Shown one piece after another: positions 13,575-14,318 of a stretch of 64,000 nt of DNA. The stretch comes from Eledone cirrhosa (lineage: Eukaryota), in assembly GCA_964016885.1 (NCBI GenBank), contig CAXHJY010000883.1, positions 1 to 64,000 on the forward strand. The letters are read 5' to 3'. The first letter of the stretch is position 1, and the number at the start of each line of letters is the position of its first letter. The position numbers and the translations under genes are program-made. The notes beneath the pieces were generated by a model. It did not search any database and had not been told where the DNA came from. It saw only the letters and a program-made list of their open reading frames with translations.

Positions 13575-14318
13575 GATAGACATAGAATATTCTAAAATAT
13601 TCTGTATGTTTATAATAAACATTTTGAAGACCTAATCGCTATAGAATAGAATACGTCACGTATTACAATTAGATTCTCGATAAAAGCAAGGGAAGTAACC
13701 TACGCGTTTCATTCTCATTAGAAATCTTCAGGATTACATATCCAGTGCTTTTATCGAGAATGACACAGCTAGAGACTTATAGAATACTTAGCTGTGTACA
13801 GGAACTGGTTTGAAAGAGCGGTTGCCGGTCCGGCAGAAATTAGAAATTGGATTAAATGCTCTGAAATAGCGATATATATGTGAAGATAGACATAGAATAT
13901 TCGAAAATATTCTGTATGTTTATAATAAACATTTTGAAGACCTAATCGCTATAGAATAGAATACGTCACGTATTACAATTAGATTCTCGATAAAAGGAAG
14001 GGAAGTAACCTACGCGTTTCATTCTCATTAGAAATCTTCAGGATTACATATCCAGTGCTTTTATCGAGAATGACACAGCTAGAGACTTATAGAATACTTA
14101 GCTGTGTACAGGAACTGGTTTGAAAGATTTCTAATGAGAATGAAACGCGTAGGTTACTTCCCTTGCTTTTATCGAGAATCTAATTGTAATACGTGACGTA
14201 TTCTATTCTATAGCGATTAGGTCTTCAAAATGTTTATTATAAACATACAGAATATTTTCGAATATTCTATGTCTATCTTCACATATATATCGCTATTTTC
14301 AGAGCATTTAATCCAATA
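13571..14318. mobile_element. Second locus of the 310-bp HHR unit (about 1.8 copies minus, then inverted partial plus)
   Basis: Same unit with a few substitutions. HHRs at 13695-13737 and 14005-14047 (minus, CTGAAGA core). Inversion at ~14126, (TA)n flanks. Confidence 0.93.

Follow-up and report, generated by a model that had tools for sequence, protein, structure and literature searches.

We have found that two loci (A and B) in a 64,000-nt stretch of Eledone cirrhosa DNA (contig CAXHJY010000883.1, positions 1 to 64,000; hereafter the window) are arrays of a tandem, non-coding unit of 310 bp with a GC content of 34.5% that carries a type I hammerhead motif. Judged from its sequence, this unit is quite probably an animal non-LTR retrozyme moved by a Penelope-type reverse transcriptase (RT), and every sequence-level feature of non-LTR retrozymes that gave a clear outcome appears to be present in it. 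Within the window the unit is dispersed as loci A and B plus one sister unit (copy C), and we lean towards the view that the insertion junctions of these loci are evidence for a mobilisation of animal retrozymes by Penelope enzymes. Retrozymes are a known class, and their mobilising partner has so far been argued from co-occurrence and from similarity to the pseudo-LTRs (pLTRs) of Penelope-like elements (PLEs) (PMC7229834, bioRxiv 10.64898/2026.07.22.740005). Retrozyme arrays that are young and near-identical and bear junction marks of the Penelope type would make the mechanism countable in one genome, and the class would extend to octopods. No report of an octopus or cephalopod hammerhead or retrozyme family was found in the literature searched, which comprised few subscription papers and no supplements.

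Metazoan non-LTR retrozymes of coral, mussel and axolotl are described as tandem units of 150-450 bp with a GC content below 50% (Cervera and de la Pena 2020, PMC7229834). On the one hand, the units studied here are like those of that account in having one canonical type I hammerhead each, strong self-pairing and several variants per genome. On the other hand, the inverted arms, tails and (TA)n targeting of our loci have no counterpart in the descriptions of retrozymes consulted, and the present account is one of sequence alone. Plant LTR retrozymes are non-autonomous hammerhead elements, and the published model has them pass through a circular RNA intermediate (PMC4918200, PMC7761336). Unlike those, which are described with a type III hammerhead, LTRs, PBS/PPT and 4-bp TSDs (PMC7761336), the unit here has a type I motif, and its arrays show no LTR architecture and are laid out as simple tandems. 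The coordinates of the features are collected in Table 1.

Table 1. Features of loci A and B, copy C and hammerhead D in the window; array orientation was taken with the ribozyme strand as sense.
Feature	Position	Strand	Description
Locus A left arm	1..1836	-	about 5.9 units, 6 hammerheads; continues past the window start
Locus A inversion junction	1837..2065	-	degraded, noisy partial unit
Locus A right arm	2066..4023	+	6.3 units, 6 hammerheads; 3' end at unit 139, then (TA)n
20-nt motif, then (TA)n	13524..13543	+	repeats at 14334 and 14412, nowhere else in the window
Locus B main arm	13562..14127	-	310-bp unit present 1.8 times; 5' end at unit position 194
Locus B main arm, 3' end	unit 130-139, then (TA)n	-	belongs to arm 13562..14127
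Ribozyme domain	13673..13761	-	enclosed by two helices, one of 3 bp and the 16-bp outer stem; one pair broken at 13997 in copy 2
Hammerhead, locus B copy 1	13695..13737	-	type I motif
Hammerhead, locus B copy 2	14005..14047	-	type I motif
Locus B inverted 5'-truncated arm	14126..14317	+	starts in the ribozyme core (unit 285), ends at unit 165, then (TA)n
Copy C	14466..14782	+	one whole sister-family unit, TA tract to TA tract; 3' end as in A/B; fold z -5.4
Hammerhead of copy C	14604..14651	+	U3-A8 core, G10.1-C11.1, 12-nt palindromic stem III, C17
Hammerhead D	22652..22694	+	canonical core, different stems, 6-nt palindromic stem III, U17

Hammerhead motif and predicted fold of the unit

Fourteen instances of the motif were found in the window (12 copies in locus A at 1-4023 and two in locus B), against none in 100 shuffles, and each full 310-bp unit holds one. 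A descriptor scan returned 16 hammerheads (12 in A, two in B, C and D), against three in 20 shuffled windows. Rfam gave no match in the window, and the 14 matches that 13400-14700 gave at a limit of E=10 included no hammerhead. In locus B, stem I has 6 bp, stem II has 4 bp with a U.U at its base, and stem III has 1 bp with a palindromic loop; cleavage of copy 1 is predicted between 13701 and 13700. An internal loop of 3+1 nt follows stem I, and loop II is found in the variants UACG, AAUG and AACA. The canonical core (C3-A9, G12-A14, A15.1-U16.1, H17) is present in A (12 copies), B (two copies) and D, and C has U3-A8. At position 10.1-11.1, A and B have U.U, C and D have G-C, and two public contigs have A-U. 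At window position 2621, C replaces U at position 10.1 in one of the 12 A copies.

Metazoan type I hammerheads are described with a helix I of 6 bp, a helix II of 4 bp and a helix III of 1-2 bp with a palindromic loop (PMC4209133). These helix lengths are matched by the motif here, and the palindrome of C is longer, at 12 nt. The 1-bp helix III with a palindromic tetraloop is shared with axolotl HHR_Amex1 and the U.U at the base of helix II with HHR_Amex2 (PMC7229834), and both of these weak features predict dimer-dependent cleavage. In contrast to axolotl HHR_Amex1/HHR_Amex2 (newt satellite 2 type), as described there, both weak features stand in one motif here. A further difference from the axolotl motifs is that two of the four public sequencing runs considered below are fixed for a variant in which the U.U is repaired.

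The self-duplexes of the stem III palindromes have predicted energies of -7.5 (A/B), -20.1 (C) and -4.8 kcal/mol (D). Considering that an active-like fold of the A/B monomer is about 5 kcal/mol worse than the fold without helix III, activity would depend on dimers. The palindromes of stem III and the costly monomer fold, as modelled, are consistent with the published dimer model. In a 2026 preprint, only one of nine predicted retrozyme dimers cleaved in vitro (bioRxiv 10.64898/2026.07.22.740005). The copies described here would offer a natural variant series for dimer-dependent hammerheads, with U.U versus A-U at 10.1-11.1, C3-G8 versus U3-A8, and 6- versus 12-nt palindromes.

The 310-bp unit as a whole folds with z values of -4.1 in A, -4.7 in B and -5.4 in C, and none of 100 shuffles folded as well. 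Its antisense strand folds equally well or better than the ribozyme strand, and no antisense ribozyme was detected in the unit by the descriptor scan. Inside the arrays there is no ORF of at least 120 aa except one TA-spanning frame (3950-4312), which has no Pfam match. The noise of the A junction at 1837-2065 possibly reflects a poor assembly consensus or an assembly artefact. A degraded hammerhead lies in this junction (1894-1979, minus strand), in which deletions break stem I and stem III is a different 6-nt palindrome; it may be read noise.

Differences between copies and probable selection on the ribozyme

We compared the hammerheads of locus B (13695-13737 and 14005-14047, minus strand) with the 12 A copies at 1-4023. 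The substitutions listed in a first-pass annotation of this DNA are present in both B copies: in stem I, G-U to A-U (13734/14044) and U-A to U-G (13699/14009); at N7, U to A (13727/14037); and in loop II, two letters that turn UACG into AAUG (13719+13717/14029+14027). The conserved core and the palindromic stem III, ACGCGU, are identical in A and B, as that annotation had stated. Its claim that the second locus differs only by substitutions tolerated by the ribozyme was too narrow. There are seven fixed sites per 310-nt unit, five in the 43-nt ribozyme and two outside it (unit positions 126 and 159), in addition to private changes. Unit position 159 has no pairing partner in the folds; 126 forms the terminal pair of a weak helix in the circular fold of A and stays unpaired in that of B. 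The private changes of locus B comprise 13593, which is located in a hairpin loop, an insertion at 14296, and 13997, through which the 16-bp outer stem of copy 2 loses a C-G pair.

All 129 single substitutions of the 43-mer were enumerated for tolerance, and the tolerated fraction ranged from 0.25 (strict, no transition bias) to 0.47 (lenient, strong bias). Five tolerated changes of five have p=0.001-0.02, and five changes that all miss the 11 core positions have p=0.21, which is not significant; both values are post hoc and come from non-independent sites. None of the 30 pairs is changed on both sides between A and B, and therefore the changes are wobble-compatible and not compensatory.

The differences between A and B cluster in the ribozyme (5/7 in 43 of 310 nt, p=7e-4). 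Possible reasons for this clustering are that the rest of the unit is under stronger constraint, that subfamilies exchange sequence by conversion, or that the cleavage rate is being tuned, and the hammerheads of PLE motifs are described as highly variable within a genome (PMC4209133). Two possible sources of individual substitutions were also considered. ADAR editing behind the A/G changes of stem I is not supported, with only 3 of 12 variable sites being A/G on the sense strand. CpG decay of AACG could account for the loop II variants AAUG and AACA, but as a general explanation it was set aside, with the other 12 CpGs of the unit showing no fixed difference between A and B. The clustering is also as in a converted tract, and thus speaks for a reading in which the loci are ordinary satellite DNA from a once-active retrozyme, spread as DNA, with A and B produced by drift or conversion of old subfamilies and the inversions being assembly artefacts. 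The non-significant core avoidance and the private change that breaks the outer stem point in the same direction.

The variation in public sequencing runs bears on this satellite reading. Words of locus B were found in 20 runs from 17 studies under 18 organism labels. The contigs of four of these runs (X3, X9, X12 and X19), which are runs without an RNA record, were aligned to one B unit, and 14 other runs with small word shares were left out as evidence. Run X3 yielded 678 contigs of very high summed depth (which is not a copy number), and the unit family is very high-copy in public contigs. Substitution rows of at least 1% in X3 are located at 13699, 13716, 13717, 13724, 13727 and 13734 inside the ribozyme, and at 13831, 13842, 13843 and 13852 outside it (4 in 267 nt). 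All six ribozyme rows fall at tolerated sites, these being wobble, loop or N7 positions or U10.1 to A, which turns the U.U mismatch at 10.1-11.1 into A-U. When 13719 from locus A is added to the six, the subfamily-level ribozyme sites are tolerated in 7/7 cases (p 6e-5 to 5e-3), which argues against satellite drift.

Three indel rows were seen in X3, one of which (about 2%, two contigs) is inside stem I. The core is not seen to mutate as freely as the loops, with no core substitution row of at least 1% depth in the 678 X3 contigs, but this absence is weak by itself because only four rows occur in the 267 nt outside the ribozyme and most of the unit is likewise without rows. The letters of B account for roughly a tenth to a quarter of the X3 depth, which indicates that B is a subfamily and not a one-off. 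The loop letter of A at 13719 is in none of the row lists of the four runs.

Copy C is 58% identical to A in a MAFFT alignment and shares the overall fold plan of A and B. For the pair counts, C was aligned by the core anchor, as MAFFT shifts C by one column in the ribozyme domain and gives false broken pairs (30/75); the helices for the counts were chosen after inspection. Between A and C, 15 of the 26 ribozyme-domain pairs (stems I, II and outer) are changed on both sides, two on one side and nine not at all, and none is broken. The two-sided changes are divided among stem I (four, together with the two one-sided changes), stem II (three) and the outer stem (eight). Against the two one-sided changes observed, 12 are expected under independent change (p=2e-5). 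Of the further helices, two hairpins contribute six more two-sided changes, and a third has no change. A hairpin of 9-11 bp before the ribozyme is out of register in C (10/36 identity), two other helices are partly kept, and a small GC hairpin, which stands outside the 45-pair test, is kept with a 1-nt deletion. A covariance model from A/B alone puts C in the same register of stem I and outer stem and scores it 28 bits on the ribozyme strand versus 14 on the other, but the model is unspecific, as coreless perfect palindromes also score, one at 43.5 bits.

In comparison with A/B, C is identical at 9/11 core positions, plus the U3-A8 pair, and at 2/12 stem I letters (Fisher p=0.003), and D is identical at 11/11 core positions and 6/12 stem I letters (p=0.014). 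D is grouped here by its ribozyme motif and not by flank homology to the 310-bp unit. The stem III sequences of A/B, C and D are all different, and each is a perfect palindrome. The U3-A8 pair is published as a natural covariation of C3-G8 in Schistosoma PLE hammerheads, and the copies here resemble the hammerheads of PLE pLTRs in this core variant and in hypervariability within a genome (PMC4209133). Two-sided changes in perfect stems can alternatively arise through DNA-level repair between inverted arms. However, the U3-A8 pair is outside any inverted repeat, and therefore DNA palindrome repair cannot produce it. The first-pass annotation had proposed selection on RNA structure and catalysis from the five substitutions, which alone give modest support. 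We consider that copies C and D and the public contigs lend strong support to selection on the ribozyme fold, so this part of the proposal likely holds, on stronger grounds than those first given. At D, a perfect 28-nt palindrome (22640-22667) overlaps the 5' half of the hammerhead and is predicted to sequester the core; it resembles the palindromes described at PLE inversion junctions (PMC3846280).

Insertion anatomy and route of spread

Both arrays show a head-to-head inversion in which the arms are joined 5' to 5' with their 3' ends outward, the junction of A being noisy. A common 3' end, at which unit 130-139 (the internal TA tract) passes into genomic (TA)n, is found in the right arm of A, the left arm of B and copy C. 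At the clean junction of locus B, the inverted arm has a 2-nt overlap (microhomology) with the main arm. The same arm extends 26-35 nt beyond the other end and forms a tail, which is present in the one testable case, the other end of A being outside the window. The five outer ends seen (right end of A, both ends of B and of C) all adjoin (TA)n, although chance is not negligible in a TA-rich window. The diagnostic letters of each locus are present in both of its arms, and the arms of A hold about six identical units each, which fits one template per insertion. Because copy C holds a single permuted unit that runs across the cleavage site, its template would have been circular or longer than the unit. 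Target site duplications of non-LTR retrozymes, where they occur, are longer than 4 bp. The 20-nt motif that occurs once to the left and twice to the right of locus B fits either a target duplication or a small pre-existing tandem interrupted by B.

Inverted 5'-truncated copies, a tail of 30-40 bp on one end and a bias to (TA)n are described as marks of Penelope-like insertions (PMC8557442, PMC3846280). Our loci are like such insertions in the head-to-head 5'-truncated copy, the tail of about 30 nt, the (TA)n and, at copy D, the 5'-end palindrome. The first-pass annotation had concluded that propagation goes through RNA; the five substitutions do not imply this, but the inversion, the common (TA)n 3' end and the tail make RNA-level spread of loci A and B likely. 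Local growth of the arrays may proceed by DNA recombination or exchange. On the side of the satellite reading, the A junction is noisy. Against it, the B junction is clean, with its microhomology and tail, the 3' end is common to three copies, and near-identical subfamilies stand at separate loci, which indicates recent dispersal. We regard ordinary satellite DNA as a very unlikely explanation.

In the mechanism that we propose instead, a multi-unit transcript would be made from an array, adjacent hammerheads would pair by way of their palindromic stem III, their cleavage would release 310-nt monomers, and a host ligase would circularise these monomers. A Penelope-like RT/endonuclease would prime at the internal UA tract of the unit on a nicked (TA)n target and would copy more than one unit length, and the inverted arm would result from a strand switch. 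Two different template RNAs would have given rise to loci A and B. We propose that new loci were reached only by templates whose ribozyme worked, so that the differences between A and B would be tolerated ones.

The same marks may also be explained if the unit is the pLTR of an autonomous PLE, with 5'-truncated PLE insertions and with pLTR arrays grown by unequal exchange of DNA. In this case, the ribozyme would be selected in the parent PLE, and free circular RNA would be unneeded. Every insertion mark seen here is a PLE mark by the published descriptions (PMC8557442, PMC3846280). In the 2026 preprint, homology to known TEs is reported for 24 of 57 Xenopus retrozyme families; of the 22 TEs matched, 21 are PLEs, with the match at their pLTRs, and local DNA amplification of retrozymes is proposed (bioRxiv 10.64898/2026.07.22.740005). 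The near identity of the A copies with each other also speaks for this reading. However, no PLE ORF adjoins any copy, the arms of A with their identical units and the arms of B with their shared letters look as if each insertion had used a single template, C consists of exactly one unit in permuted form, and unit-to-unit tandem joints appear in X3, the run of very high depth. The ribozyme is also canonical and not of the minimal type described for PLEs (PMC4209133). We therefore consider the pLTR explanation unlikely, while it overlaps with the retrozyme mechanism preferred here, the template being the sole difference.

No Penelope ORF (RT plus GIY-YIG), as PLEs would have, is among the 76 ORF translations of the window, whose matches were one LINE ORF and one sub-threshold Atrophin. 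The LINE ORF (28230-31460, plus strand) is uninterrupted over 1076 codons, has APE endonuclease and RT domains and holds the sole RT in the window; its closest relatives are 71% identical, and its best named match is from Argonauta hians (61%), which by itself makes an octopod source likely. It was considered as the mobiliser and rejected, as no link was found and an inversion with a tail fits PLEs better.

Self-closing contigs and other repeats of the window

Runs X9, X12 and X19, which carry three other organism labels, each gave one unbranched contig in which the unit end closes on the unit start (340, 340 and 280 nt), with loop II AACA and 6-8 differences from the B unit. The change of U10.1 to A is fixed in two of these three and makes up about 8% of the depth in X3. 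Self-closing contigs in all three runs, and unit words in 20 runs under 18 labels, would suit a unit that also replicates from RNA to RNA as a viroid-like circle, with a higher mutation rate and passage between hosts. Such steps have been suggested for hypervariable PLE hammerheads (PMC4209133) and mussel retrozymes (PMC7229834). On the other hand, a trace of a high-copy tandem repeat, coming from a related species, diet, environmental DNA or contamination, assembles into the same loop, and trace DNA of such a repeat explains the self-closing contigs equally well as a circle. One of the three runs is marked as DNA, by guess. The unit is nearly invariant outside the ribozyme, unlike a quasispecies, and the lack of an antisense ribozyme in the descriptor scan also disagrees with replication from RNA to RNA, which we consider extremely unlikely.

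We find it highly improbable, too, that octopods harbour the 310-nt unit as a viroid-like circular RNA combining Penelope integration with RNA replication or host-to-host passage. If true, such a circle would explain the closed-loop contigs under several labels and the concentration of variation in the ribozyme, with the rest of the circle frozen. Pattern scans had no match in metagenome contigs and viral contigs. One X3 contig at depth 5 (13655-13701) skips 45 nt from exactly the predicted cleavage site, with five other letters between.

The window is microsatellite-rich animal DNA and very TA-rich, and it holds further repeats. Near-perfect palindromes of about 90 nt are dispersed at 35054-35146, 6756-6853, 23661-23748, 59750-59848 and 5605-5678, and single arms are present at 14916-14958 and 48143-48187. 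They have a common arm of about 45 nt and no hammerhead core, and they may be a MITE-like or fold-back element. A near-perfect palindrome of 100 nt (36691-36790) is unrelated to this family in sequence. The stretch at about 15140-15340 may resemble a common octopus SINE-like repeat. Tandem arrays elsewhere are located at 39185-41812 (periods 22/42/64), 49184-50548 (period 14), 55154-55643 (period 37) and 62414-62574 (37 bp).
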